Notes: generated by a model from the sequence alone, not told the origin. A stretch of 24,000 nucleotides of DNA from Coriobacteriales bacterium (GCA_963665595.2 CAXXJK010000005.1:536778-560777); one strand, 5' to 3'; counted from the first letter of the stretch, positions 1,239-16,701 are shown. Program-made: numbers and translations.

Positions 1239-2315
1239 CTATACGTAACGCAATGAGCAAGAAAATTGCGCTTTGGTAGAAATCTTTACTACGTCATTGT
1301 CCTGAGGCGCGTGTATATAAGCGCCTCCACCGTCTTCAATACAGATACCCACGTGTCCGTCTTTCCAGAGGATATCACCTGCGCGCGCCGCGCTCACAGA
1401 ACGTATCTCGCGTGCGTTTGCGTACTGAGAGCCCGTGTAGTGATCAAGCGAGATCCCAATACATGAATAGCAATATTTGGTGAGGCCTGAGCAGTCAAAC
1501 GCCACGCCGGGGCTCTCTGCACCCCATACATAGGGAACACCACGTTGCGAATAGGCAGCTGCGACCACTGTGCTGAGTGCTGAGCCGTCAGAGGAGTAGC
1601 TAGGGGAAGAGCCTGAAGACGAGCCTCCCGAGGAGGATCTGCTTGCCGCAGCCGCGGCTGCGGCATCCTCTGCGGCTTTTTCTGAGTCGAGCAGTTCTTT
1701 AACTTGAGTGTTAAGGCTGTTTAGCTTGGCACGATATTGCTGAGTGAGCTGCTCTGCTTGGTCGCGTGCGGCCGCTGCTGCGTTCAGTCGTTCTTGAGCG
1801 GTGTCAGCCTGCCGAGCATATTCGGTATGTGCCGCTTCCGCTTCCGCTTTTGCTGCATTAAGCTGTCCAACTAGGTCGGCATCTTGAGAGTTCAACTTGT
1901 TCAGTATATCCCAGGTATTGACAAAGTCTGCAAATGAGGCGGCCCCTAACAGTACGTCAAGATAGGAGACTTCGCCATTTTTATACATGCTTGCCGCACG
2001 GGAAGAAAGCTTACCCTGTGTGGATGAGATAACGGTCTGCGCAGCATCAATGCGGTCCTGTGCGGCGTTCATGGCATCAACGGCGGCGTCGTGTTCGCTT
2101 AACGCTTCATAGTAGGCATCAGATGTCTGGTCGAGTTGAGCCTGCCATTGGGCAAGCTGTGCGGAGACCTCATCGGCTTGTGCCTGAACTTCAGCAGCAG
2201 TGAGCGCAAACGCTCGTTTTGTAAAGCTCAGAGAAGATAATTCGATGCTTGCAACCATCACGGCAGCGGCAGTAAGGAAGGTACGGCGAGAAAGTACTTG
2301 TTGGTTCATAGGCAT
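1239..2315 (-). CDS. Tat-exported coiled-coil NlpC/P60 peptidoglycan endopeptidase (RipA/CwlO-like architecture)
   Basis: 358 aa. Twin-arginine-like signal LSRRTFLTAAAV...AFA. Long Ala/Gln/Glu-rich coiled-coil region and a Ser/Gly linker. C-terminal NlpC/P60 core (VPYVWGAESPGVAFDCSGL ... GHVGI ... IHAP). AAGGAGAAG SD 6 nt before the ATG. Confidence 0.88.
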   Translation of the reverse strand: MPMNQQVLSRRTFLTAAAVMVASIELSSLSFTKRAFALTAAEVQAQADEVSAQLAQWQAQLDQTSDAYYEALSEHDAAVDAMNAAQDRIDAAQTVISSTQGKLSSRAASMYKNGEVSYLDVLLGAASFADFVNTWDILNKLNSQDADLVGQLNAAKAEAEAAHTEYARQADTAQERLNAAAAARDQAEQLTQQYRAKLNSLNTQVKELLDSEKAAEDAAAAAAASRSSSGGSSSGSSPSYSSDGSALSTVVAAAYSQRGVPYVWGAESPGVAFDCSGLTKYCYSCIGISLDHYTGSQYANAREIRSVSAARAGDILWKDGHVGICIEDGGGAYIHAPQDNDVVKISTKAQFSCSLRYV

Positions 2316-2675: not shown

Positions 2676-3437
2676 ATGAAGAGTACGACAGACAGAACTG
2701 GACGTGCGTCCAGAAGAGATATACGTCTCGATATCCAGAAAGATTTAGAATCACCGGCTAAGATAGTTGCCGATGTTTGCGATTATCTCAAAATCGAACA
2801 CGATCTTGTGGTCGTGCTGCTATCCGGTTGCACGGATGAAAAGGCGGCTCATACGTTCATATCTTCGATATACAATGAGCTGAAGAACAGCGATGCCTCA
2901 TCGACAAATTCCACGTTGAGAATCTCTCTCATGGACACATGCGCACATCTTGAGTATTGGTCTGATGAAGGAGATTATTCAGCAATTGTTGACACACTTA
3001 TGACGGAGGCTAACGAGTTCGTCGAACGATATTTTCCTGAAATCAGACATGCCGGCAGGACATATCGTTGGGAGAGATCTCGTATGGACGAGATACGCAC
3101 CGATCTTGTCAAACTTGAACTCCACGTCGCCTTTACGGAATTCATGTGTTCAAATAATTTCTCAGACTCTTCTCAGATAACTTCCGAGGGGAGAACGGCA
3201 TTTGAGTATGTGTGCAAAATTCTTGCACGGCTGCAAACCGCTTGTTCCGACATGGTACAGGGATTGAACGCCTTGGGCCCGAATTTCGAAGTAGTGGACT
3301 GGGAAGTTAACCTTTTATCGGTGCAGGTTCAAGACGAAAAGGTTGTCATGCACCTAATGACTGCTGTGCTGATTGTCTCGATTCTTACCTGCATCATATC
3401 TATTCTGCATGTGGCGATTGTTCTGATCGGGTATTAA
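2676..3437 (+). CDS. Hypothetical tail-anchored membrane protein, paralog A of the 15647..16402 product
   Basis: 253-aa ORF, soluble N-terminal ~215 aa plus one C-terminal hydrophobic helix (VVMHLMTAVLIVSILTCIISILHVAIVLIGY). Collinear similarity to the second copy supports that it is real. I recognise no known domain. Confidence 0.6.
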   Translation: MKSTTDRTGRASRRDIRLDIQKDLESPAKIVADVCDYLKIEHDLVVVLLSGCTDEKAAHTFISSIYNELKNSDASSTNSTLRISLMDTCAHLEYWSDEGDYSAIVDTLMTEANEFVERYFPEIRHAGRTYRWERSRMDEIRTDLVKLELHVAFTEFMCSNNFSDSSQITSEGRTAFEYVCKILARLQTACSDMVQGLNALGPNFEVVDWEVNLLSVQVQDEKVVMHLMTAVLIVSILTCIISILHVAIVLIGY

Positions 3438-4074
3438 ATTTTCGTGTTGTCTCGTCAACGAATATGACTCCAGACAAAATGATCAATGAAACACCAAACG
3501 AAGCTACAGTATCAGTTAGCCAGTGATATCCCAGATAGAGGCGACTGAGAGCAGTTATTGTTGCCCCTACCAACGCAAAAATGCTCCAAACACACAGTCT
3601 TTTTGGGGTGAAGTCGCGAGAATAGATGAGATAGCCCAATACCAGTAGAAAGACCATGGCTCCAAGCGTGTGTCCTGAGGGGAAGGAGTAATCGGTCTCA
3701 AAGGGAGCAATCATGTAGATTTGTGCGGGACGCAAAACCATAGTCAGGCATTTTATGCTGAGCGAAAGGATTGCAGTAAAGCCGAGAGACCCGATAAACA
3801 GAAGAGGACGTTGCCACTCATGGCGCAAGGCCACCCAAATGATAAAGATTACAAGAGAGATAACCGTAAGTGATAGGGGACTTGCGAGGGTGGTTATACC
3901 TAACGCTAGTTGCGTGAGAAAGAGATCGCGATGATCGAACATCCAAAGAAGAATCGGTTGGTCAAAAATTCCGATACCGTGTTGTTGACTTGCCCCAACC
4001 GCCGCAATCACAAGGAAGATAACGCCCATGATGAAACAAGATAGGGAGACGAAACAACGCTGCTTGTGTGTCAA
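3400..4074 (-). CDS. PAP2-family membrane phosphatase (undecaprenyl-diphosphate/lipid phosphatase type)
   Basis: 224 aa, polytopic. All three PAP2 motifs present: KCLTMVLRP (Kx6RP), PSGH, SRLYLGYHWLTD (SRx5Hx3D). The start is TTG in the track and is uncertain. Confidence 0.85.
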   Translation of the reverse strand: MTHKQRCFVSLSCFIMGVIFLVIAAVGASQQHGIGIFDQPILLWMFDHRDLFLTQLALGITTLASPLSLTVISLVIFIIWVALRHEWQRPLLFIGSLGFTAILSLSIKCLTMVLRPAQIYMIAPFETDYSFPSGHTLGAMVFLLVLGYLIYSRDFTPKRLCVWSIFALVGATITALSRLYLGYHWLTDTVASFGVSLIILSGVIFVDETTRKFNTRSEQSPHAE

Positions 4075-4318: not shown

Positions 4319-4585
4319 GAATACAATTCAAGATGAGTCAAACTAAAATTTATAATATGTATAGCAAAATTTATATAAACTCAATAAAAGTATCGATTTA
4401 TAATTATTAAAAATTTGATTTGTGTGCAAAAGATGATACTGCCAGAATGAGTATCATCGCGATGGAAACTAATCCTATTATACGGTTCATAGACTACTAA
4501 AATATTGCGATTTGATGCGCGTGCAAGTGGGGTGAACTCGGGCAGCGAGCATGCGGCTTGAGTGTTGTGTATAGGAGGAAAGACA

Positions 4586-7468
4586 ATGAGAACCAAACGT
4601 ACTTCATGGGCTTCAAAATTTGTTGCCATTTTCGTGACGGTCGTGATGGTAACGTCCCTTGTTCCCGTCTCATATGCTTCAGGACAAACAGCTACGGTCA
4701 CTTCTCAGCCAACAGTGGCAGCGGAGAGCACACTGAGTTCGAGCACACTGAGTTCGAGCACACAGTCTGGCGGAACCGAGACCGTAGCAATAACTCAAGA
4801 TGTGGGCCAGACATCGCTTGACGCACAATCTGATCTGACGGCTATGGGTGTTAATCCGTTTCTGACCACCTATACGCAACAGACTAATTCTACCGTTGTT
4901 ACCGTAACCATACCCAATTATGACAATCTTATTGTACTAGGGGCAACATCAGTTGTTGTTGAGGTCACGATGAGCTATGACGGAGTAACCACCCGTGATG
5001 TTCAGTTCAAGAAATCTCTCTCAAGTCTTTCTGGCGGAGATCATAGTTTCACTGTGGACTTTACTACGTATGGCAAATTTACTGTTGATACCAAATACTA
5101 CAATGGTACCTCTATCATGAGTTATTCTCAGGAAACAAAAGGTATCACTGCTGCTGAATACAATATCGCACCATTAGGATCCACCTTTCCGGTAACGTTG
5201 TTCTCACTTTCTCTTTGGGATATCACTAAGAACTCAAGTGGTAATGTCGTTCCAACGATTACACTTCTTGAGCGGCCTACGGCGTACAATTGGGACTGTC
5301 TTCCGAATGGTGTCTACTCTCTTCCCTATATAACAGAAGATGAAGCTGCAAACGCAGGTAGCTGGATGTTCAAGCAGAAATATGCGGCCGTCATGGATGC
5401 CTATGTACGTGATCTCTATGAACTAAGCCCCGATTCAAAATTCAATTTCTACTTCGACGATTTCTTTGTTGGTCTCATACAGTCTGAAATCTATGCGAAC
5501 AAAATTCCCTCAAGCCAATACACCATTAAGTTACTTTCTGATGGCGGGTTTAGTGCTTCCTCATTCCAGAGAACATACACGACGGCCAATGCTAGCGATG
5601 TACAAACGAGCTTGATCAGCAGTTGGAACACTGCTAAAGATTATGCGTATGAAACGGGTACGGTTGCTGACGGATTCAGTCAGTATTTCTGTGCTGACTA
5701 CGTATATGCCGCTGTGGCGAGTGAGACGAATATCGAATGGTGGATAGGGCGTAAAGCACTGCTTACCAGCGGAACGAAGGATAACTCTGGGGCGATACTG
5801 ACCGGTGATGGCGATGCTTTTGGTGCTATCGCTCGGAGTAACCCCAAGGTGGTTCAGAAGAGCATAGCAACCATGCTGACTTCCTTGCAGGCAAAAGGCC
5901 CCGATACGGTGGCAGCGTTCAAGGCACTCTATAACTTTAATGATGGATATTTCTCTGAGGCGGCCAAACAGGGCAAGAAGGTCATGCTTTTGCTCGGTGC
6001 TTGGGATGGTAGGAGCATGCCGATCGAGATTACCGATTACGCGCGTTTCGCCGAGACCTACTACGGCAGCGATTATCTCTACTACTATAAGGGTCATCCG
6101 GCAACGCCCATGGAGTTATACCCGGCATTTGCTACGGGACTTGACGAGATAGGGGTTACGCCTATAGATGCGTCGATCGCTGCCGAGATTGTGCTGTTCT
6201 TCAACCCCGATATCTATCTGTCAGGGTTTGCTTCAACGACGTGGCAAAGTGTTTCTGGCGATATGGCTGCCACGCTGTTTGGCATGACGAAAGCCGTTGC
6301 GGCCGCCTCTACCACTAACACTTCTGCGGATACAAATGCGTTCATCTCTCTTGCGGTCTCGTATCCTGATGCGACAGTTCAAGCGCTCTGTACGGCAGGC
6401 AATACCTGCTATGTGGTCGAATTTGCGAACGATATTCTTGCGACGGTCGATTATACGATCGCTATTTGGGACGCAACAAGCAACACATTATCTTATTACA
6501 AACTTGACGGTACTACCTATAGTCTGGTGAGGACCGTTGCTTGGCCGGGTAGTGGTGGCGGCCAAGGAGAGGACAAAGGCCCTATCGAAGATGGTGTCTA
6601 TACCATAAGTTGTAAGGGTACCGAAAGCTCAATGGTTGAAGTCGATAATTCTTCGACCGATGAGGGTGCGAATGTTCAGATTTATACGGATAATTCGACG
6701 AGCGGCGAACGCTTCCGACTAATCTATAAGGGCGATGGTTACTATAACATTCAGAATGTTAATTCTGGCAAAATGCTTGACGTGGAGTGGGCTGGCATGA
6801 CGATGGGCACCAATGTCTGGCAGTATACCGATAATGGATGCGACTCTGAAAAATGGCTTCTTGTTGATACGGGCGATGGGGATAATTCTTACTATCTCGT
6901 CTCTAAATTAAACGGCCTGTATTTGGATCGTTCCTACAATTCAAGTAGTGACGGTACCAACATCATGGTCTGGGCTGGCAATGGGCTTAATAATCAAAAG
7001 TTTTACTTTAATGATACTGAAACGGTAAAATCGGGCACTTATAGCATGCACTCAGGACTTGATGAAGACAAAGTAGTAGACATTCAGTGGAATTCAACGG
7101 ATGATGGCGGAAACGTTTGGCTTTATTCTGACTATGGATTTGATAATCAAAAGTTTGTATTTGCCTATGATTCAAATACGGGTTATTACGGGATTCAGAG
7201 TGTGAGTTCTGGTAAGATGCTCGATGTTCAATGGGGCGACAGCGCGTCGGGAACCAACGTATGGCAATATTCTGCCAATGGTCTACCGGCGCAGCAGTGG
7301 AGCATTAAAGCCCGTGAGGACGGAGCCTACATCATCAGTTCAGCCACAGGGGGATGCTGCCTTGATGTTACCAACGCGCAAACTGACGACGGCACAAATA
7401 TTCAGGCGTGGACGCGAAATGAATATCCGTCGCAACAGTGGATATTAGAAGAAATCCTTCCCCTGTAG
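4586..7468 (+). CDS. Secreted multidomain protein: signal peptide, S/T linker, Ig-like beta region, GT80-like (sialyltransferase-fold) core, two C-terminal ricin-type beta-trefoil lectin domains
   Basis: Track ORF 4562..7468. I prefer the ATG at 4586, preceded by TAGGAGGAAAGACA. Signal peptide MRTKRTSWASKFVAIFVTVVMVTSLVPVSYA/SGQ. Core motifs KLLSDGG, LLLGAWDG, YYYKGHPATP, AAEIVLFF, GFASTTW. Six QxW-type subrepeats (ERFRLI, SEKWLL, NQKFYF, NQKFVF, AQQWSI, SQQWIL). A strong terminator follows. Confidence 0.88.
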   Translation: MRTKRTSWASKFVAIFVTVVMVTSLVPVSYASGQTATVTSQPTVAAESTLSSSTLSSSTQSGGTETVAITQDVGQTSLDAQSDLTAMGVNPFLTTYTQQTNSTVVTVTIPNYDNLIVLGATSVVVEVTMSYDGVTTRDVQFKKSLSSLSGGDHSFTVDFTTYGKFTVDTKYYNGTSIMSYSQETKGITAAEYNIAPLGSTFPVTLFSLSLWDITKNSSGNVVPTITLLERPTAYNWDCLPNGVYSLPYITEDEAANAGSWMFKQKYAAVMDAYVRDLYELSPDSKFNFYFDDFFVGLIQSEIYANKIPSSQYTIKLLSDGGFSASSFQRTYTTANASDVQTSLISSWNTAKDYAYETGTVADGFSQYFCADYVYAAVASETNIEWWIGRKALLTSGTKDNSGAILTGDGDAFGAIARSNPKVVQKSIATMLTSLQAKGPDTVAAFKALYNFNDGYFSEAAKQGKKVMLLLGAWDGRSMPIEITDYARFAETYYGSDYLYYYKGHPATPMELYPAFATGLDEIGVTPIDASIAAEIVLFFNPDIYLSGFASTTWQSVSGDMAATLFGMTKAVAAASTTNTSADTNAFISLAVSYPDATVQALCTAGNTCYVVEFANDILATVDYTIAIWDATSNTLSYYKLDGTTYSLVRTVAWPGSGGGQGEDKGPIEDGVYTISCKGTESSMVEVDNSSTDEGANVQIYTDNSTSGERFRLIYKGDGYYNIQNVNSGKMLDVEWAGMTMGTNVWQYTDNGCDSEKWLLVDTGDGDNSYYLVSKLNGLYLDRSYNSSSDGTNIMVWAGNGLNNQKFYFNDTETVKSGTYSMHSGLDEDKVVDIQWNSTDDGGNVWLYSDYGFDNQKFVFAYDSNTGYYGIQSVSSGKMLDVQWGDSASGTNVWQYSANGLPAQQWSIKAREDGAYIISSATGGCCLDVTNAQTDDGTNIQAWTRNEYPSQQWILEEILPL
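4728..4765 (+). repeat. 15-bp in-frame tandem repeat (AGCACACTGAGTTCG x2.5) encoding STLSS repeats in the post-signal linker
   Basis: Read directly: units at 4728-4742 and 4743-4757, partial third unit 4758-4765. Confidence 0.85.
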
Positions 7469-7509
7469 GAATTAAGCTCTGTGATTGTCATAAGAAAGCT
7501 GACGTAAAC

Positions 7510-7556
7510 AAGAAACCCTGGTAGGCGATTAATCGCCTACCAGGGTTTCTTGTTTA
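7510..7556 (+). terminator. Intrinsic terminator of the lectin gene
   Basis: Perfect 21-bp palindromic stem: AAGAAACCCTGGTAGGCGATT (7510-7530) with AATCGCCTACCAGGGTTTCTT (7531-7551), then GTTT. Confidence 0.85.
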
Positions 7557-7697
7557 AACTTAATGCCCTTATAACTAAATGCAGAGGGGACGACTCTGCT
7601 AGTAAGGTGTTTTGTTGACAATGATTAATCATTATTGGCGCGGTTATTACGTAAGCGCATAACGGTGCCAATACAGTTACGTTCTTGATCCAGTGTC

Positions 7698-8045
7698 TTA
7701 TGCGGTTGTCATAGTATCGCTGCGAGTAATGGACTGGCCAATTTCCTTTTCAAAAAGGATATATCGTTTTACTCGATCCTTCGAGTCTTCATTTAAGGAT
7801 ATGATGGAGTAATAGATATCTTTAGCGTCGTGGTCTCGTTCTCGATCAAAGAGTTCGTCTATCGATATATTCAATGCCTCACAGATGCGCGGCACGATTT
7901 CTATGTCAATTGAGTTTTTTCCATTGAGCCAGTTTGACACGGCTTGATCGGAAACCCCCATCAGTAGCGCAAAATCTTTTTGCTTCATATTCGTACGGGA
8001 TAGATAGAAATTGAGATTCATTTTGATATCATTCTTCGTCCCCAT
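7698..8045 (-). CDS. XRE-family helix-turn-helix transcriptional regulator (cI-like, HTH plus C-terminal extension)
   Basis: NFYLSRTNMKQKDFALLMGVSDQAVSNWLNGKNSIDIEIVPRICEALNISIDELF is a typical HTH_3 domain. Track start is 8057. The ATG at 8045 has GGAGGAA 5 nt upstream and is preferred. Confidence 0.82.
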   Translation of the reverse strand: MGTKNDIKMNLNFYLSRTNMKQKDFALLMGVSDQAVSNWLNGKNSIDIEIVPRICEALNISIDELFDRERDHDAKDIYYSIISLNEDSKDRVKRYILFEKEIGQSITRSDTMTTA

Positions 8046-8089
8046 GATTTCCTCCATACCAAGTTCCGTTATTATGACTATTTGTTAAT

Positions 8090-8116
8090 ATTATAGTATA
8101 ACTTTATTATGTTCAA
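8090..8116 (-). promoter_or_regulatory. Candidate sigma70-type promoter of the XRE gene (TTGAAC-N15-TATAAT on the minus strand)
   Basis: GTTCAA at 8111-8116 and ATTATA at 8090-8095 on the plus strand. The 15-nt spacer is short. It overlaps a plus-strand TTGTTA-N17-TATTAT (8082-8110), giving a face-to-face arrangement. Confidence 0.35.
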
Positions 8117-8452
8117 TAACATTATTAGGTTTAAATATGACATTTGGCACTTTGCGAAATCAAAATGAGAGGATTTTTAATTCAAATTATTAAGTCGTAT
8201 GTACGACACCAGTGGTTATTATCGTTGTTATATTCAGTAATTTTAATATAAAAATAGGCAAACAATTTGCTTTGCTAAATTTTTTCATAAGCATCTACCG
8301 TTGTTCAAGGCAGCGTATCCTTGCTAATGCGTTACTGATGAGAACAAGCAGGGCTTTTATGATCATACTCATTCCCTGATAGGTAGGGGAATAAAGCCTT
8401 CTGTATAGGCGATAGTTTTTGATAACGAATTTGTTTAAGCATGTTTATTGTT

Positions 8453-8480
8453 TTGACTTTTTTCGCAATAGATTTATTAT
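8453..8480 (+). promoter_or_regulatory. Candidate promoter of the small XRE/Cro-like gene (TTGACT-N16-TATTAT)
   Basis: TTGACT at 8453-8458 and TATTAT at 8475-8480. The 11-mer TTTATTATGTT covering this -10 recurs at 8103-8113. Confidence 0.4.
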
Positions 8481-8541
8481 GTTAAACGTAGGAAATAGTT
8501 TCTACTCAAACAGTAGGTCTCTTCGCTGGGTCACTCGAGAA

Positions 8542-8751
8542 ATGACAGTAAGTGGTGATGTCATGATTGTGGACAGAATTTTAGAACATATTAAGCGAAA
8601 GGGAATTAAACAGCGAGCGCTTGCTGAATGTATCGGTGTTTCGCCTCATACGATTTCAGAAATTCTTGCGGGTCGTCGCAAACTTACTGCTGAGGAATAT
8701 GCCGACATATGCCGCTTTCTCGAAGTTCCCTATGATAGGTTCATGAGTTAG
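8542..8751 (+). CDS. Small XRE-family HTH regulator (Cro-like)
   Basis: ILEHIKRKGIKQRALAECIGVSPHTISEILAGRRKLTAEEYADICRFL is an HTH_3 domain. The track ORF starts at TTG 8419, upstream of the predicted promoter and so unlikely. ATG 8542 or ATG 8563 are the plausible starts. Confidence 0.72.
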   Translation: MTVSGDVMIVDRILEHIKRKGIKQRALAECIGVSPHTISEILAGRRKLTAEEYADICRFLEVPYDRFMS

Positions 8752-8852
8752 CTTTGTCGAAAGCCTGATTGACGATTCGAGGGTTTTCTTAACCTTTGCA
8801 ATCAGAGGTCTATTTTCTGCGCATTACGTAGTATTGAATAGAGTGTTTATAT

Positions 8853-8882
8853 GCCGAGGAATCTTTTGCCTCGGCTGTTTTC
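8853..8882 (+). terminator. Intrinsic terminator downstream of the small XRE gene
   Basis: GCCGAGG (8853-8859) pairs with CCTCGGC (8869-8875), followed by TGTTTTCG. Confidence 0.6.
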
Positions 8883-8925
8883 GTTGCGTGGTGGGCTGAT
8901 ACATCGTCGTGGCTTCAGAAGAAGC

Positions 8926-9702
8926 CTACATGGTTGGCAGCGCTTCTGACAGTAAGATGATCCAAGTTGAAATAGCAAGGGCGGGAGCGAAGGGAAACGT
9001 ATGAGAGTTATCCAGCAGGGGATGAATCAACGACTTCATAATATCTTGAATGATGCTTAGAATACAGGCGATGACCAGAGTAGAGATAATCGGGGATATA
9101 CCGAGAAAGAGGCCGATGACGAGAACTAGTTTTATATCGCCGCCGCCAATCCCTTGTTTGCCCGTGAGCTTCTTGAATGCAAAAGCAAGCATCGTAAGCA
9201 GAATGCTCATAGCAAGCCCGCCAAATAGGCTTTCGGCGATTGACGGCATAGGGGCAAGTTTTCCTGTTCCAGAAATGAACTGACACATACTTATGTCTTG
9301 TGAGATGCTGCAGTAGAAAATTGAGACAAACCCCCAGACACAGATACCCATGATGACGAGGCCATTGGGAATCATGCGCACTGTAAAGTCAATTGTCGAA
9401 GCGGCAAGCAGTATACAGCCGAGAGCGCATAGCGAGATACCTCTGACAGTGAGTCCGTAGATAACGATGATACTAATCAAGTAGAGCCCATAGATAAAAC
9501 CTTCGACTATCGGCGCGCAGCCGACATTACTTCTGGCTTCCTCTTTTGTTTGGATGTAGTGCGTTGCTCGGTGGTAGATCAGCATACCCACACCAAAGCC
9601 AAACAGCCCGATCACAATAAGAGACACTGGTGAGGAAAGCCACGAGGATCCGACTCCTATAGTAATAAGCGGCATGATCGCTCTCTTTCGGTGCTGGCGC
9701 AT
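8926..9702 (-). CDS. A24-family prepilin (type IV leader) peptidase, TadV/CpaA-like short form
   Basis: 258 aa, polytopic. First Asp motif STIDFTVRMIPNG, second Asp motif GIGGGDIKLVLVIG. No N-terminal Cys-rich (zinc) domain. An alternative start (MPLITIG) lies at 9675. Confidence 0.8.
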   Translation of the reverse strand: MRQHRKRAIMPLITIGVGSSWLSSPVSLIVIGLFGFGVGMLIYHRATHYIQTKEEARSNVGCAPIVEGFIYGLYLISIIVIYGLTVRGISLCALGCILLAASTIDFTVRMIPNGLVIMGICVWGFVSIFYCSISQDISMCQFISGTGKLAPMPSIAESLFGGLAMSILLTMLAFAFKKLTGKQGIGGGDIKLVLVIGLFLGISPIISTLVIACILSIIQDIMKSLIHPLLDNSHTFPFAPALAISTWIILLSEALPTM

Positions 9703-9972
9703 CTATCAAAAGATTCTCAATTTGATAGTGCTACCCTATAAGGCCGCTCTCATCATATGTTTGTATCCGCATTTTTTTGATAAACAAGGTGCGAAACTAA
9801 AGATTTTTATAAGCATCTCATAATTCTTTCATTTATCAACAAATCTGTTTCATTTTCGTTCATTTACTGTATGCGTTGATGGCTACTATGCCATGGTATA
9901 GATGTATACATCTGACCGTTAGATCATGAGCGTTATATGCGACAGATTTGTTGTCTATGAGAAAGGGGGCAA

Positions 9973-10749
9973 TTGGCGGTGATTTTTGACGGAAACTTTA
10001 ACAAGCAGGGGAAAGACCGCACTCCTTTCTCCTCCTTTTTCAAAGAGGCACAGGCCTCTTTGTTTGAGGTGATTGCCCCCACTCGTTGTATTGTCTGTGA
10101 GTCTCCCGGTCCTCTTCTCTGCGATCATTGCGCTGCTACTTTGACGGGAATTGATAATAAAGCCGCTTGCGTACGGTGCGGTGCTCCTTTTGGGGGCGTG
10201 ATCTGCGCAGAGTGTCAGCGTCCTGAGGGGTTGCGTCTGTTTTCATTTGATGCGGCTCGAGCAAGATTTGTTTTTGACCAGACGAGCGCTCGTATAGTTA
10301 AAGCGTTCAAAGATGAGGGCGAGCGTCGTTTGGCGACTATCATGGCCCGCTATCTTGTCGATGCTGCGGCAGAGTGGACGCTTTCCGCTGATTTTGTCGT
10401 GCCCATTCCGGCTACTCGTCAGGCATTGCGCGCACGTGATTTTGATCATATGGCTTTAGTCGCCGCGGAGTTTTCAGTTATGACAGGAGTTTCCGCGCTC
10501 GATTGCTTGGTGAAAACAGACACCCATGATCAGCGAGGGCTTGATCGCGCCCGACGTCAAGAGAATATGGCAGGGAGTTTCTCTCTCGGCTTGCCTTCTC
10601 TTGCGGCTTTGTTGCGGATACGAGCTCCCAGAATTATTCTTATTGATGACGTATTCACTACGGGTGCGACACTTGATGCGGCAGCCGCTACTCTTCGAAA
10701 CGCAGGTGTTCGGTCGGTCTTCGTCGTTGTTTTGTGTCGCGTATGGTAA
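9973..10749 (+). CDS. comFC: ComF-family protein / amidophosphoribosyltransferase-like (ComFC)
   Basis: N-terminal double CxxC zinc-finger region (CIVCESPGPLLCDHC ... CVRCGAPFGGVICAEC). C-terminal PRTase motif RIILIDDVFTTGATL. TTG start preceded by GAAAGGGGG. Confidence 0.85.
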   Translation: MAVIFDGNFNKQGKDRTPFSSFFKEAQASLFEVIAPTRCIVCESPGPLLCDHCAATLTGIDNKAACVRCGAPFGGVICAECQRPEGLRLFSFDAARARFVFDQTSARIVKAFKDEGERRLATIMARYLVDAAAEWTLSADFVVPIPATRQALRARDFDHMALVAAEFSVMTGVSALDCLVKTDTHDQRGLDRARRQENMAGSFSLGLPSLAALLRIRAPRIILIDDVFTTGATLDAAAATLRNAGVRSVFVVVLCRVW

Positions 10750-10807
10750 ATGCTGTGTTTACCTATTTGCTCTCCTGCGTAAAATGATTATCTGCTAGAA
10801 TTTACCC

Positions 10808-11093
10808 GTTCCTCCGAGTTTGTGGTTGCGAAAGCGTAATAGCTTTTTAGTCCATGGCAGATGCGGTCAAAAGGATCCACGTAACTTCCCATGCAAATGG
10901 GATCGAGCATGGCGCATCTTAGGGGTTAGTCGTACCGTCCGGTTATTCAGGAACATACGTTCCCCGGGCGAGAGGGCAAGTAGTGAGATAGTATCAGGCG
11001 AAAGTTCCGGTACGCGAGTGTGGGGTCAAATACCAGGTCAATCGGAGGAACACGGTAGACGAGGGGATATAACCGGCTGGAGCCGGTGTTTTT
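10808..11093 (+). ncRNA. Candidate stand-alone structured RNA, probably a raiA-motif RNA (comFC-hpf intergenic ncRNA class)
   Basis: Extended -10 TGcTAGAAT at 10793-10801. GTTCCTCCGA (10808-10817) is perfectly complementary to TCGGAGGAAC (11042-11051). Internal hairpins with GNRA loops: GC-GAAA-GC 10828-10835 and CCCAT-GCAA-ATGGG 10888-10901. Also AGATGCG/CGCATCT (10859-65/10913-19) and GGAAC-ATAC-GTTCC (10950-63). Terminator CCGGC-TGGA-GCCGG+TGTTTTT at 11073-11093. No credible ORF. The class call rests on position, not on a covariance-model score. Confidence 0.45.
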
Positions 11094-11097
11094 ACGA

Positions 11098-11940
11098 ATG
11101 AGGTGCTGTAGCTTGAAGAAATTCGTTCGTACACTCGCTTGTATCGCGCTCTGCGTGGTTGTGACGGTAGGACTGGTGGGTTGTGGTCCGACGGGCTCAA
11201 AGGAAATCCCACTCACCCCGCAGATTTCTTCACCAACGATCATAACTAATGGTTATCTGACGGTCGGTGTTGATTCAACATCCGCTCCTTATGCAGGCGA
11301 ACACTCCGGTGCTTTGATTGGTGTCGATGTTGACGTTGCTGCCGCACTCGCCGATCAGCTGGGGCTGAAGCTCAAGGTTGTTGATATTAATTCAACAAAT
11401 GCAGCCGATCAGCTTACCTCAAATAAGGTTGATACGGTTATGAGTTGGAATAGCACCGGTAACACATCTACTCAGGTGACAAAAGTAGGAACATATCTCA
11501 CAGATGGCACGGCTCTTTTTGGCATCTCAGTGAGCGGGGATCTTCAGGTTAACAAATCCTCATTGCAGGGGGTCAAGATTGGCGCTCAGGCAGGCTCAAT
11601 ATCGGTTACGACAGCAGGCACCTACTGTGGCTACAATAACGTCGTTACCTATGGAACGTTGAGCGAGGCGTTTGCTGCTCTTGAGTCTGGCGCGGTAACC
11701 TATGTTGCTTGTAACGCAGTAGCGGGATCATACTTGGCTAGTTCCTACGGTGACATCGCGTATGCCACCATGCTCGATTCTCCGACCAATGTAACTCTTG
11801 CGGTTGCAGCTACGGATACCGACCTGCAGAAGGCTCTGAGCGGTGCTTTAGCTACGATCAAGAGTAATGGCGTGCTTAAGGTGAGCGTTGCTAAGTGGAT
11901 TGGTATGTCGACGGCCAGTAAGCTGATACCCACCAGCTAG
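11098..11940 (+). CDS. ABC-transporter substrate-binding lipoprotein, family 3 (polar amino-acid type)
   Basis: Lipoprotein signal KKFVRTLACIALCVVVTVGLVGC. SBP_bac_3-like core (LTVGVDSTSAPYAGEHSGALIGVDVDVAAALADQLGLKLKVVDI...). Start ambiguous: ATG 11098, or TTG 11113 with GAGGTG 7 nt upstream. The track's GTG 11086 lies inside the terminator stem. Confidence 0.8.
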   Translation: MRCCSLKKFVRTLACIALCVVVTVGLVGCGPTGSKEIPLTPQISSPTIITNGYLTVGVDSTSAPYAGEHSGALIGVDVDVAAALADQLGLKLKVVDINSTNAADQLTSNKVDTVMSWNSTGNTSTQVTKVGTYLTDGTALFGISVSGDLQVNKSSLQGVKIGAQAGSISVTTAGTYCGYNNVVTYGTLSEAFAALESGAVTYVACNAVAGSYLASSYGDIAYATMLDSPTNVTLAVAATDTDLQKALSGALATIKSNGVLKVSVAKWIGMSTASKLIPTS

Positions 11941-12292: not shown

Positions 12293-12862
12293 ATGGATAT
12301 CACTGTTACTGGTCGCCGTATGGCGACGACCGAAGCACTCAAGGAATATGCCGAGGAAAAAGTATCTGCAGCGATGAAGGTGTTTGACATTACTCCTATG
12401 TCTGCAGAAATAGTTCTCCATGTTGAGAAAAACCCTGCCAACCCAAACCCCGCTGTAGCAGAAATTACCATTCGTGCAAAAAGCCACGTCATTCGCGTGG
12501 AAGAGGCTGAAGAAGATATGTATGCCGCCATTGATGTGGCATCAGCTAAATGCGAACGCCAACTGCGCAAGTTCAAGACGAAAGTAGTCGACAAGAAGAC
12601 ACGCGCAGAAAAACCGTCCGAGGCGTTGGTGCGAGGGAACGCGTCCGCGCTTGATGCCATCGTTGAAGAAATCGAGCGTAACGAAGACGTTGTGCGTGTC
12701 AAAGAGATCGAGTTCATGGCGCTGACTGAGGAAGAGGCCCTGATACAGATCGATTTACTGGGTCATGATTTCTTTGTCTATACTGACAAAATGACCGACG
12801 ACCCTCACTTGCTGTATCGCCGCAAGGATGGAGGTTACGGTCTCATCAAGCCGAAAGCCTGA
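12293..12862 (+). CDS. hpf: Ribosome hibernation-promoting factor, long form (RaiA/HPF family)
   Basis: MDITVTGRRMATTEALKEYAEEKV... is a typical RaiA/HPF N-domain. The C-terminal dimerisation domain (EEEALIQIDLLGHDFFVYTD...YRRKDGGYGLIKP) is present. TAGGAGG SD. Confidence 0.9.
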   Translation: MDITVTGRRMATTEALKEYAEEKVSAAMKVFDITPMSAEIVLHVEKNPANPNPAVAEITIRAKSHVIRVEEAEEDMYAAIDVASAKCERQLRKFKTKVVDKKTRAEKPSEALVRGNASALDAIVEEIERNEDVVRVKEIEFMALTEEEALIQIDLLGHDFFVYTDKMTDDPHLLYRRKDGGYGLIKPKA

Positions 12863-14692: not shown

Positions 14693-14777
14693 GGGGGCGT
14701 GGCGGAATTGGCAGACGCAGGGGACTTAAAATCCTCCGCCTAACGGCTTGTGAGTTCAAATCTCACCGCCCCTACCA
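14693..14777 (+). tRNA. tRNA-Leu (anticodon TAA), long variable arm, CCA encoded
   Basis: Acceptor GGGGGCG/CGCCCCT (G1-U72 wobble), anticodon arm GGGGA-CTTAAAA-TCCTC, variable arm CGCCTAACGGCTTG, T arm GTGAG-TTCAAAT-CTCAC. Confidence 0.9.
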
Positions 14778-14879
14778 CAGTTCAATGCTACTTGAAATTG
14801 AGTGGCACGCTACTCGTTTCGAGCAGTCGTGACGGTTATCATGCGCACTGCTCCGCTCACGCAGCGAATAAGATATTTC

Positions 14880-14936
14880 GGGAATGAAGCTCTCCCTTGG
14901 TTGATCCAGAACCGCTGTATGCTGATGGCTTCTACA
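14880..14936 (+). promoter_or_regulatory. Fluoride riboswitch (crcB motif)
   Basis: GGGAAUGAAGCUCUCCC ... AACCGC-UGUAU-GCUGAUGGCUUCUAC matches the remembered consensus GGnGAUGnnnnnCnCC ... AACCGCC ... GCUGAUGnCUUCUAC. It sits ~40 nt upstream of crcB. Confidence 0.8.
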
Positions 14937-14978
14937 TAAGAGGTCATGTAATTTGGCTATACGGCGAAAGGGTGGTCT

Positions 14979-15368
14979 GTGCCTACCTTGGTTCTTAATT
15001 GCCTCTATGTGGGCATGGGCGGTGCCCTTGGCACGGTTCTTCGTTATATTATTGGTTTAGTACCTCTCAATGAAACTAATGGGTTTCCTCTGGCAACCCT
15101 GCTTATTAATTTTTCTGGTGCTCTTCTCATAGGCACGATCATTGCCTTTGCCGATTGTAGAGGTGGTTTTGACTCGAGCATTATGCTCTTTTTGAAGATA
15201 GGCCTCTGCGGGGGATTTACCACATTTTCAACATTCTCTCTGGAAACGGTGCAACTTTTAGAAAAGGGCAGCTTTTTTATTGCCGGTTCTTATATTTTCG
15301 CCAGCGTATTTCTTTGTATTGTGGCAATATTTTTTGCACAATGGTTGGTTACCATGATTGTCTCATAA
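14979..15368 (+). CDS. crcB: Fluoride ion channel CrcB/FluC
   Basis: 129 aa, 4 TM. GGALGTVLRY and CGGFTTFSTFSLE signature motifs. GTG start after AAGGGTGG. Confidence 0.9.
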   Translation: MPTLVLNCLYVGMGGALGTVLRYIIGLVPLNETNGFPLATLLINFSGALLIGTIIAFADCRGGFDSSIMLFLKIGLCGGFTTFSTFSLETVQLLEKGSFFIAGSYIFASVFLCIVAIFFAQWLVTMIVS

Positions 15369-16627: not shown

Positions 16628-16701
16628 GCCACAGTAGCTCAGCTAGGCAAGAGCGCCCTCTGAAATGGGGGAGGTCGCGGGTTCGAATCCCGCCTGCGTA
16701 T
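16628..16701 (+). tRNA. tRNA-like gene with a Phe(GAA)-type anticodon loop but non-canonical acceptor and anticodon stems (pseudo-tRNA or tRNA-like ncRNA)
   Basis: Canonical TA-GCTC-AGCTAGGCAA-GAGC D arm and GCGGG-TTCGAAT-CCCGC T arm, loop CTGAAAT. However, 5' GCCACAG versus 3' CTGCGTA pairs at only 4 of 7 positions, and the 5' anticodon stem strand is one nt short. Confidence 0.5.

Follow-up and report, generated by a model that had tools for sequence, protein, structure and literature searches.

The closest described relatives of the protein considered here are the sialyltransferases of glycosyltransferase (GT) family GT80, exemplified by PmST1 of Pasteurella multocida (PM0188; PDB entries 2ex0 and 2ihj) and by the alpha2,6- and alpha2,3-sialyltransferases of Photobacterium (2z4t, 4r83 and 2zwi), all hosted by marine or Pasteurellaceae Gram-negatives. 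The PmST1 active site also runs sialidase and trans-sialidase reactions (PMC4202792, PMC10795189), and in GT80 both activities are a reverse sialylation that depends on cytidine monophosphate (CMP) (PMC10795189). The subject of the present analysis is a gene at positions 4586-7468 of a 24,000-nucleotide (nt) stretch of DNA from a Coriobacteriales bacterium (GCA_963665595.2, CAXXJK010000005.1:536778-560777), referred to below as the window. A first-pass annotation, made from the sequence alone, had taken its product for an exported GT80-like core fused to two ricin lectins. The core indeed has GT80 as its nearest structural neighbour and retains the corresponding catalytic residues, and it represents a sister family of GT80 whose members are exported and mostly carry modules that bind their own cell wall.

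The GT38 polysialyltransferases (PF07388), which have the D/E-D/E-G and HP motifs in common with the window protein, are cytoplasmic-face capsule polymerases. A functional precedent outside the cytoplasm is Lst of Neisseria, an outer-membrane sialyltransferase of family GT52 that is fed by host CMP-N-acetylneuraminic acid (CMP-Neu5Ac) (PMC4324315), that is, a sialyltransferase-type GT-B enzyme using a scavenged nucleotide sugar. Lst differs from the window protein in its CAZy family, in its Gram-negative outer-membrane location and in having no lectin modules. In Gram-positives, known extracytoplasmic glycosylation falls to GT-C enzymes, which are polytopic and draw on polyprenyl-monophosphate sugars (PMC9574508). 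These act in multicomponent systems of a GT-A enzyme, a flippase and the GT-C transferase, which decorate wall glycopolymers after export. The setting is the same as that of the window protein, but the latter is a soluble GT-B with a nucleotide-type site.

Architecture of the exported protein

The open reading frame (ORF) could also begin at an in-frame GTG at 4562, but the ATG at 4586 is the likely start because a Shine-Dalgarno sequence is suitably spaced ahead of it (Table 1). The N-terminus, MRTKRTSWASKFVAIFVTVVMVTSLVPVSYA followed by SGQ, has the basic n-region, hydrophobic core and AXA-type site of a Sec signal peptide. By hydropathy, this is the sole hydrophobic segment of the 960-residue chain. 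Inspection of motifs and hydropathy found no LPXTG-like motif, sortase signal or further membrane segment in the protein; the first-pass annotation had likewise seen no LPXTG or other anchor. The Ser/Thr-rich linker and beta-rich segment that it placed after the signal peptide are also present. The linker is presumably disordered, and the segment that follows is modelled as an immunoglobulin (Ig)-like domain.

Between the GT-B core and the lectins lies a small beta subdomain, residues 585-652, bearing the pattern YLVEFSD...YDIAI...YYK conserved in the alignment of homologues. The last ~290 residues match the Pfam models RicinB_lectin_2 (PF14200; E 7e-69, 229 bits against a cut-off of 25.6) and Ricin_B_lectin (PF00652; E 7.5e-20, 71.8 bits against 29). 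Within them, the subrepeats close with six (Q/E)-x-(W/F) motifs, at residues 708, 755 and 804 in the first trefoil and 855, 903 and 950 in the second, so that the two lectins claimed earlier are borne out as two complete ricin-type (CBM13-like) beta-trefoils. Matches to lectins in the PDB reach E 1e-26, and the alignment to HA33 covers both trefoils. A ricin fusion to a GT80 core was not found among the 18 canonical GT80 sequences retrieved.

GT80 is the nearest structural neighbour

Two AlphaFold2 (AF2) models were used: one of residues 95-665, built from a 98-sequence alignment (predicted local distance difference test, pLDDT, 92.3; predicted template modelling score, pTM, 0.91), and one of the GT-B core alone, residues 190-580 (pLDDT 92.4). 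Searched against the PDB with Foldseek, the longer model returned Photobacterium GT80 structures (2z4t, 4r83) as its top three matches (E ~1e-11, probability 1.0), in alignments of ~500 columns that take in the N-terminal Ig-like domain of those enzymes. With the core alone, the top 13 matches were all GT80 (E 4.6e-11 to 1.4e-8) and comprised the enzymes of P. damselae, P. dagmatis and P. phosphoreum (2zwi), PmST1 and JT-ISH-224. The best template modelling (TM) scores, 0.66/0.69, were obtained with 2zwi, and those with PmST1 were 0.55-0.62 (E ~1e-10). A gap of about three logs then separates GT80 from the next matches, UDP-GlcNAc 2-epimerases at E 2e-5 and weaker, with TM ~0.4. No GT52, GT38 or 3-deoxy-D-manno-octulosonic acid (Kdo) transferase structure appeared in the top 50 PDB matches of the core, and polysialyltransferases were absent from the top 50 of the longer model as well. 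Because the leading matches all belong to one family and are followed by a gap, GT80 is the specific nearest neighbour and not just any GT-B fold. The comparison with PmST1 and Photobacterium structures that the first-pass annotation had proposed as a check thus came out in favour of its GT80-like assignment.

Structural identity to GT80 is 11-14% overall and 10-13% for the Photobacterium enzymes. The likeness to the Photobacterium enzymes extends to the overall plan, since an exported N-terminus, an Ig-like domain and a GT-B core are shared; to these, the window protein adds the beta subdomain and the two lectins. PmST1 likewise has an N-terminal signal peptide but neither an Ig-like domain nor lectins. 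Matches of the full model to GH2, dextranase and chitinase structures were rejected, as they disappeared when the core was searched alone and their TM was 0.11-0.15, which fits a match to a single small portion, probably the Ig-like domain.

A sister family by sequence

In sequence searches the relationship lies below the usual thresholds. The protein scores 14.7 bits against PF11477 (PM0188, GT80; cut-off 25 bits, E 0.015, residues 489-569 only) and 11.9 bits against the GT38 model PF07388 (cut-off 23.3, residues 482-552), missing both cut-offs. The best PF11477 score of any family member examined is E 4e-4. PF07388 is matched by 9 of 52 members, and two short ones, P0094 (26.2 bits) and P0095 (27.4 bits), exceed its cut-off. 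Searches of the core against PDB sequences, by phmmer with the protein, by hmmsearch with the family profile and by phmmer with P0094, gave only lectin matches or noise, and NCBIfam offered lectin models but no model for the catalytic domain. This domain goes without recognition in Pfam, NCBIfam and source names alike, the proteins being named by their accessory modules alone ('RICIN domain-containing', 'S-layer homology domain-containing', 'Ig domain-containing') or as 'hypothetical'.

Profile comparison recovers the relationship. When the family alignment was compared by hhalign with an alignment of 15 GT80 sequences, drawn from 18 true GT80 proteins retrieved, the match had a probability of 94% (E 1.4e-7) and ran through 329 columns in both Rossmann halves. 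The GT80 profile is needed for this result, for the PmST1 sequence alone gave a probability of only 34%. (The PmST1 sequence used is 100% identical to chain 2ex0_A; its numbering was set from D141N mutant entries.) All the core motifs quoted by the first-pass annotation were located, namely KLLSDGGFS at residue 315, VMLLLGAWDG at 466, YLYYYKGHPATP at 497, IDASIAAEIVLFF at 527 and SGFASTTW at 546, and hhalign reproduced its four correspondences with GT80 motifs. The resemblance is above chance by both hhalign (E 1.4e-7) and Foldseek (E 4.6e-11). Because the sequence threshold is missed, the W270 lid is lost, identity is low, and the domain set and hosts are different, the protein is assigned to a sister family of GT80 and not to GT80 itself.

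Conservation of the active site

The matches of catalytic positions (Table 1) rest on the profile alignment together with the global fold match. D319 and G320, in the motif that contains the putative catalytic Asp, are each conserved in 97 of 97 aligned members, and every residue of the K502-G503-H504-P505 segment in 94 of 94. We take the PmST1 counterpart of E534, E338, to be ribose-binding, and that of the S550-T551 pair, S355/S356, to be phosphate-binding. The same set of Asp, HP motif, Glu and Ser/Thr pair also aligns with the Photobacterium enzymes, where D232 is the counterpart of PmST1 D141. In PmST1, D141 is the catalytic base, and H311, E338 and S355/S356 are also important for catalysis (PMC4202792). 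As far as the alignments tell, all the residues that GT80 uses for catalysis and for holding CMP are retained in the family.

The surroundings of the transferred sugar tell a different story. W270 of PmST1 touches the 7-OH of sialic acid and shapes the acceptor pocket (PMC12797295, PMC7908025); neither it nor the other sugar and acceptor contacts are conserved in the family. The TGTTTW lid of GT80 is reduced to G-T (G471, T472), and the window protein has alanine at position 472. In our reading, conservation extends to the chemistry and the nucleotide-phosphate site but not to the sugar and acceptor pockets. The core is therefore GT80-like and probably CMP-dependent, but the label 'sialyltransferase' is not supported.

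Table 1. Features of the GT80-like gene and of other elements in the window
Feature	Position	Strand	Residues	Basis and remarks
ORF	4586-7468	+	1-960	960 residues plus stop codon; product identical to database protein P0001
Shine-Dalgarno sequence GGAGGA	4574-4579	+		6 nt ahead of ATG 4586; read from the sequence
Predicted Sec signal peptide	4586-4678	+	1-31	Cleavage SYA/SGQ; n/h/c regions by inspection
Ser/Thr-rich linker	4679-4867	+	32-94	40% Ser+Thr; poorly conserved in family alignment
Ig-like all-beta domain	4868-5149	+	95-188	AF2 strands only, pLDDT 95-98
GT-B core, N-terminal Rossmann-like half	5153-5950	+	190-455	AF2, Foldseek, hhalign
S318-D319-G320	5537-5545	+	318-320	hhalign onto GT80 D/E-D/E-G; D319 aligned with PmST1 D141
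GT-B core, C-terminal Rossmann-like (nucleotide-binding) half	5951-6325	+	456-580	Fold search, hhalign, weak Pfam match
K502-G503-H504-P505 (HP motif)	6089-6100	+	502-505	hhalign; H504 aligned with PmST1 H311
E534	6185-6187	+	534	hhalign; aligned with PmST1 E338; conserved in 94/94
S550-T551	6233-6238	+	550-551	hhalign; aligned with PmST1 S355/S356; Ser/Thr in >90/94
Small conserved beta subdomain	6338-6541	+	585-652	Five AF2 strands, pLDDT 95-97
Ricin-type beta-trefoil lectin 1	6587-7000	+	~668-805	Pfam PF14200/PF00652; PDB ThreeFoil, 3vsf, HA33
Ricin-type beta-trefoil lectin 2	7019-7459	+	~812-958	Pfam; PDB 8bad_A (813-956), 9s11
PcsB-like protein gene	1239-2315	-		Coiled coil plus NlpC/P60
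253-residue ORF	2676-3437	+		No Pfam match; hydrophobic C-terminal tail; overlaps end of PAP2 gene on opposite strand
PAP2-family phosphatase gene	3400-4074	-		Divergently adjacent to the GT80-like gene; 510 nt between the two
XRE/HTH_3 regulator gene	7698-8057	-		Divergent from the next; inside AT-rich 7469-9000
XRE/HTH_3 regulator gene	8419-8751	+		Divergent from the preceding; inside AT-rich 7469-9000
raiA RNA motif	10809-11050	+		Rfam RF03072, 162.7 bits against cut-off 101.3
tRNA-Leu(taa)	14693-14777			Just ahead of fluoride riboswitch
Fluoride riboswitch	14871-14941	+		RF01734, 40.3 bits against cut-off 34
crcB fluoride-channel gene	14979-15368	+		Directly 3' of fluoride riboswitch
Weak tRNA-like Rfam match	16632-16696	+		36.8 bits, partial model; no ARAGORN call

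The family and its hosts

A set of 107 relatives of the non-lectin part was assembled. A profile of the core alone was run on 1.84 billion representative proteins; of the clusters formed at 50% identity, it matched 571 with E <= 1e-3, 450 with E <= 1e-10 and 281 with E <= 1e-30. One 90%-identity cluster holds 7,638 member sequences. Among species-representative genomes, relatives are encoded at 258 loci, the closest of them 45% identical. The best 80 of these 258 loci are mostly from Collinsella, with others from Senegalimassilia, Olsenella, Thermophilibacter, other Coriobacteriia, Lachnospiraceae, Sellimonas and one Treponemataceae metagenome-assembled genome (MAG). From the wall-binding modules of the family, its taxa and the genes of the window (the PcsB-like protein and the raiA RNA motif) we infer that the host is a monoderm. 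The family hosts are monoderm gut anaerobes, in contrast to the Gram-negative hosts of GT80. A literature search, incomplete in coverage and hence weak evidence, found no description of a Gram-positive GT80-like or secreted sialyltransferase family.

Two database entries stand apart from this distribution. One, P0165, is a true PF11477/GT80 fragment of 302 residues, 42% identical to PmST1 and annotated from a Clostridium sp. MAG, by which canonical GT80 may not be strictly confined to Gram-negatives. The other belongs to the 90%-identity cluster of the 637-residue P0101, which also lists a 505-residue Mogibacterium 'glycosyltransferase family 2 protein'. The same length is that of the GT2 gene directly upstream of the P0101 gene in L004 (region 8436-11914), and the entry could be a clustering artefact or reflect a GT2 fusion in some assemblies.

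Across the family the core is constant, at 24-50% identity, and the accessory modules differ: ricin lectins, ChW domains, choline-binding repeats, N-terminal S-layer homology (SLH) domains, FN3, leucine-rich repeats, Listeria-Bacteroides repeats, or none. Essentially all complete members begin with a signal peptide or lipobox, and those of ~565 residues have a single signal-anchor helix. Export by itself is nothing exceptional for this fold, as 15 of 15 canonical GT80 sequences have an N-terminal export signal, which is a signal peptide in the PmST1 type and a lipobox in the Photobacterium type. The first-pass annotation had called the extracellular placement of such a fold unusual; this does not hold for export but does hold for the setting, because the known extracytoplasmic glycosylation of monoderms uses GT-C enzymes and here a soluble GT-B lies outside the cell.

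Most homologues looked up lie in or beside wall-glycopolymer loci

The genomic contexts of ten homologues were looked up as a sample. Eight of the ten lie in or beside wall-glycopolymer loci; P0095 is unlinked to one, and for P0001 no contig was found. The gene of P0016 is flanked by two sets of genes, one for a TagF-like enzyme, FdtA/DegT, an NTP-transferase and glycerol-3-phosphate dehydrogenase, the other for GT2, Bac_transf, Acyl_transf_3 and LCP. An ABC exporter, YkuD, ATP-grasp, CapK_C and GT2 precede that of P0101, and P0013 is encoded amid GLF, three GT2s, a TagGH-like exporter, DUF6541, LicD and DUF4422. P0033 adjoins ChW-NlpC/P60, ChW-C39, DUF2304, GT2s and a nucleotidyltransferase; P0024 is ahead of GT8, GT2, Wzx, DUF2304, DUF2142 and GT1; P0019 is close to GT2 and a TagGH-like exporter; and P0080 and P0079 are beside sets of nucleotidyl- or cytidylyl-transferase, thiamine pyrophosphate (TPP) enzyme, LicD, GT2 and Acyl_transf_3. 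Components of the GT-A, flippase and GT-C systems described above (PMC9574508) are thus among the neighbours.

When 73 ORFs that neighbour the family gene in 11 further genomes were scanned in bulk against Pfam, GT2 was the most frequent family (11 of 73), followed by ChW, YkuD, DUF6541, DegT, GLF, Bac_transf, LicD, GT8 and UDP-sugar dehydrogenase. In Collinsella-type loci (L007, 10001-17969; L088, 1149-7537), large ChW-NlpC/P60, ChW-peptidase C39 and ChW-YkuD proteins adjoin the family gene, which suggests that these ChW-tethered surface enzymes and the family gene form a shared set.

Proposed function and alternatives

The reading we favour, at about even chances and judged from sequence and models, is that the protein is a secreted GT80-type transferase acting on the producer's own secondary wall polysaccharide, probably with a CMP-activated ulosonic acid as donor. 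After Sec export, the two ricin lectins would hold the enzyme on a surface glycan, as substitutes for the modules (ChW, choline-binding or SLH) that homologues carry. At this site the enzyme would catalyse a metal-independent, inverting transfer of the GT80 type, in which D319 would deprotonate the acceptor hydroxyl, H504 with S550/T551 would stabilise the leaving monophosphate ester, most probably CMP, and E534 and the K-G-H-P segment would hold that same nucleotide. The acceptor would most probably be the secondary cell-wall polysaccharide, because the homologues sit inside wall-polymer loci. The donor would most probably be of the sialic-acid or Kdo class, though not necessarily Neu5Ac; its supply outside the membrane could come from a scavenged CMP-sugar, as for gonococcal Lst, or from CMP-dependent reverse transfer from glycosides.

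Several observations weigh against this proposal. The window gene itself lies outside any glycopolymer locus. Neither the window, where the lack of neuA and neuB had been remarked upon before, nor the looked-up homologue contexts contain genes of a CMP-ulosonic-acid pathway (NeuA/KdsB type, NeuB), and none of these is among the 25 top-ranking Pfam families listed for the 73-ORF scan. No source of CMP-sugars outside a monoderm cell is known. Within the core, the first position of the D/E-D/E-G motif is Ser in 94 of 97 members, giving a variant S-D-G motif where the Photobacterium enzymes have D-D-G; the W270 equivalent is variable (T/N/G/S, and G475 in the window protein); and sequence identity to GT80 is just 11-16%.

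Could the enzyme be directed at the host instead? The first-pass annotation had suggested a trans-sialidase/sialidase-like or host-glycan-remodelling role; on such a reading, the lectins would bind mucin glycans and the core would be a sialidase or trans-sialidase with host sialosides as substrates, serving nutrient release or the remodelling of host glycans. Ricin lectins commonly bind galactose or N-acetylgalactosamine, the named hosts among the best 80 of the 258 loci are mostly gut taxa, and no neuABC genes lie near the window gene. Sialidase and trans-sialidase side activities are, moreover, known in GT80 (PMC4202792, PMC10795189). We nevertheless think this unlikely: most homologues bear modules for their own wall and not lectins, their genes lie in wall-polymer loci, where a search of the ten looked-up contexts turned up no NeuC, nan, sialidase or transporter genes and sialidases are missing from the 25 families listed for the 73-ORF scan, GT80 sialidase activity itself depends on CMP (PMC10795189), and W270 is not conserved. 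The position of homologues in glycopolymer loci and their wall-binding modules argue for the producer's own surface polymer as the substrate. If so, that polymer might also be degraded instead of built, with the GT80 machinery running as a hydrolase or phosphorylase that trims a ketosidic or sugar-phosphate linkage as the cell grows or remodels its wall. GT80 enzymes do hydrolyse donors and glycosides (PMC4202792, PMC10795189). The neighbours of the family are often ChW-YkuD, ChW-NlpC/P60 and ChW-peptidase C39 proteins, and a PcsB-like NlpC/P60 gene lies near the window gene. A simple hydrolase, however, does not need a fully conserved nucleotide site, and no GT-B is known to serve as a dedicated extracellular hydrolase, so that trimming appears quite improbable.

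A different donor presents another option, in which the soluble GT-B would replace a GT-C and its GT80 site would have been adapted from CMP to polyprenyl phosphate. On the outside of monoderm membranes, no activated sugars other than undecaprenyl-phosphate sugars are well established (PMC9574508). Like CMP-sugars, undecaprenyl-phosphate sugars are sugar monophosphate esters. The homologue loci hold GT2, small membrane and DUF2142/DUF6541-type polytopic proteins, a typical set for making and flipping such donors, and in the window a PAP2 phosphatase gene is divergently adjacent. The invariant Glu that matches E338 and the near-identical (Y/F)-(Y/F)-K-G-H-P motif argue, on the other hand, that a nucleotide is still bound; the loci already encode GT-C-like candidates, and no GT-B is known to use polyprenyl-phosphate sugars. 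A lipid donor is accordingly given a low probability. Lastly, the many binding modules on the protein might suggest a catalytically dead scaffold that uses the GT-B cleft to bind a ligand. This is very improbable indeed, as the catalytic Asp, the His and the nucleotide/phosphate ligands are invariant in 94-97 sequences that are only 24-50% identical, a pattern typical of an active enzyme.

Beyond the preferred proposal of a wall-directed, probably CMP-dependent transferase, a more speculative claim combines some of these elements. The protein may be the founding member of a new family, present in abundant gut commensals such as Collinsella, of soluble, wall-tethered GT-B enzymes that glycosylate their own wall polysaccharide outside the membrane with an unexpected donor, either a sialic-acid-type sugar taken from host glycans by CMP-dependent trans-glycosylation or a polyprenyl-monophosphate sugar. 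We hold this to be possible, though on balance doubtful.

Other elements of the window

The GT80-like gene is monocistronic and flanked by genes on the opposite strand. Its upstream neighbours in the window encode the PAP2 phosphatase, the ORF without Pfam match, the PcsB-like NlpC/P60 hydrolase and an NTP_transf_3 protein. Those on the downstream side encode the two XRE-type regulators, a prepilin peptidase, ComF, a solute-binding protein and HPF, with housekeeping genes besides. The window has no sialic-acid genes (NeuA, NeuB, NeuC, KdsB, nan, sialidase or transporter). An Rfam scan of the 510 nt upstream of the gene gave neither a riboswitch nor any other element, and promoter and terminator scans remained at background level.

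The first-pass annotation had placed the gene in a segment richer in AT than its neighbours and considered it possibly acquired. Its GC content, 0.470, equals the window mean (0.472; upstream 0.470, downstream 0.473), and horizontal acquisition on this ground was rejected. Within the window, only 7469-9000, just 3' of the gene, is clearly AT-rich (GC 0.39). The two regulators are encoded in this stretch, which could be a small inserted module and may be the source of the earlier remark.

The raiA RNA motif sits after a ComF-like gene (9973-10749) and upstream of the solute-binding protein gene and an HPF/raiA-type gene (12293-12862), a position that is usual for this motif in Gram-positive phyla. 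The weak tRNA-like match further downstream may have arisen by chance or represent a fragment of a tRNA.

Implications

GT80 enzymes are standard tools of chemoenzymatic glycan synthesis, and a divergent sister family with other sugar and acceptor pockets could supply new catalysts. Provided that its members are active, the family would furnish a second kind of enzyme for decorating Gram-positive wall polymers after export, a task so far credited to GT-C transferases, and the long-standing puzzle of where exported sialyltransferase-type enzymes obtain their donor would become testable in a monoderm, which has no periplasm. Should the donor prove to be a polyprenyl-monophosphate sugar, the rule that extracytoplasmic glycosylation in bacteria is carried out by GT-C enzymes would be broken. 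Coriobacteriia and Lachnospiraceae of the human gut widely encode the family, and surface sialylation or a similar host-like capping, if true, would bear on the immune recognition of these common commensals.

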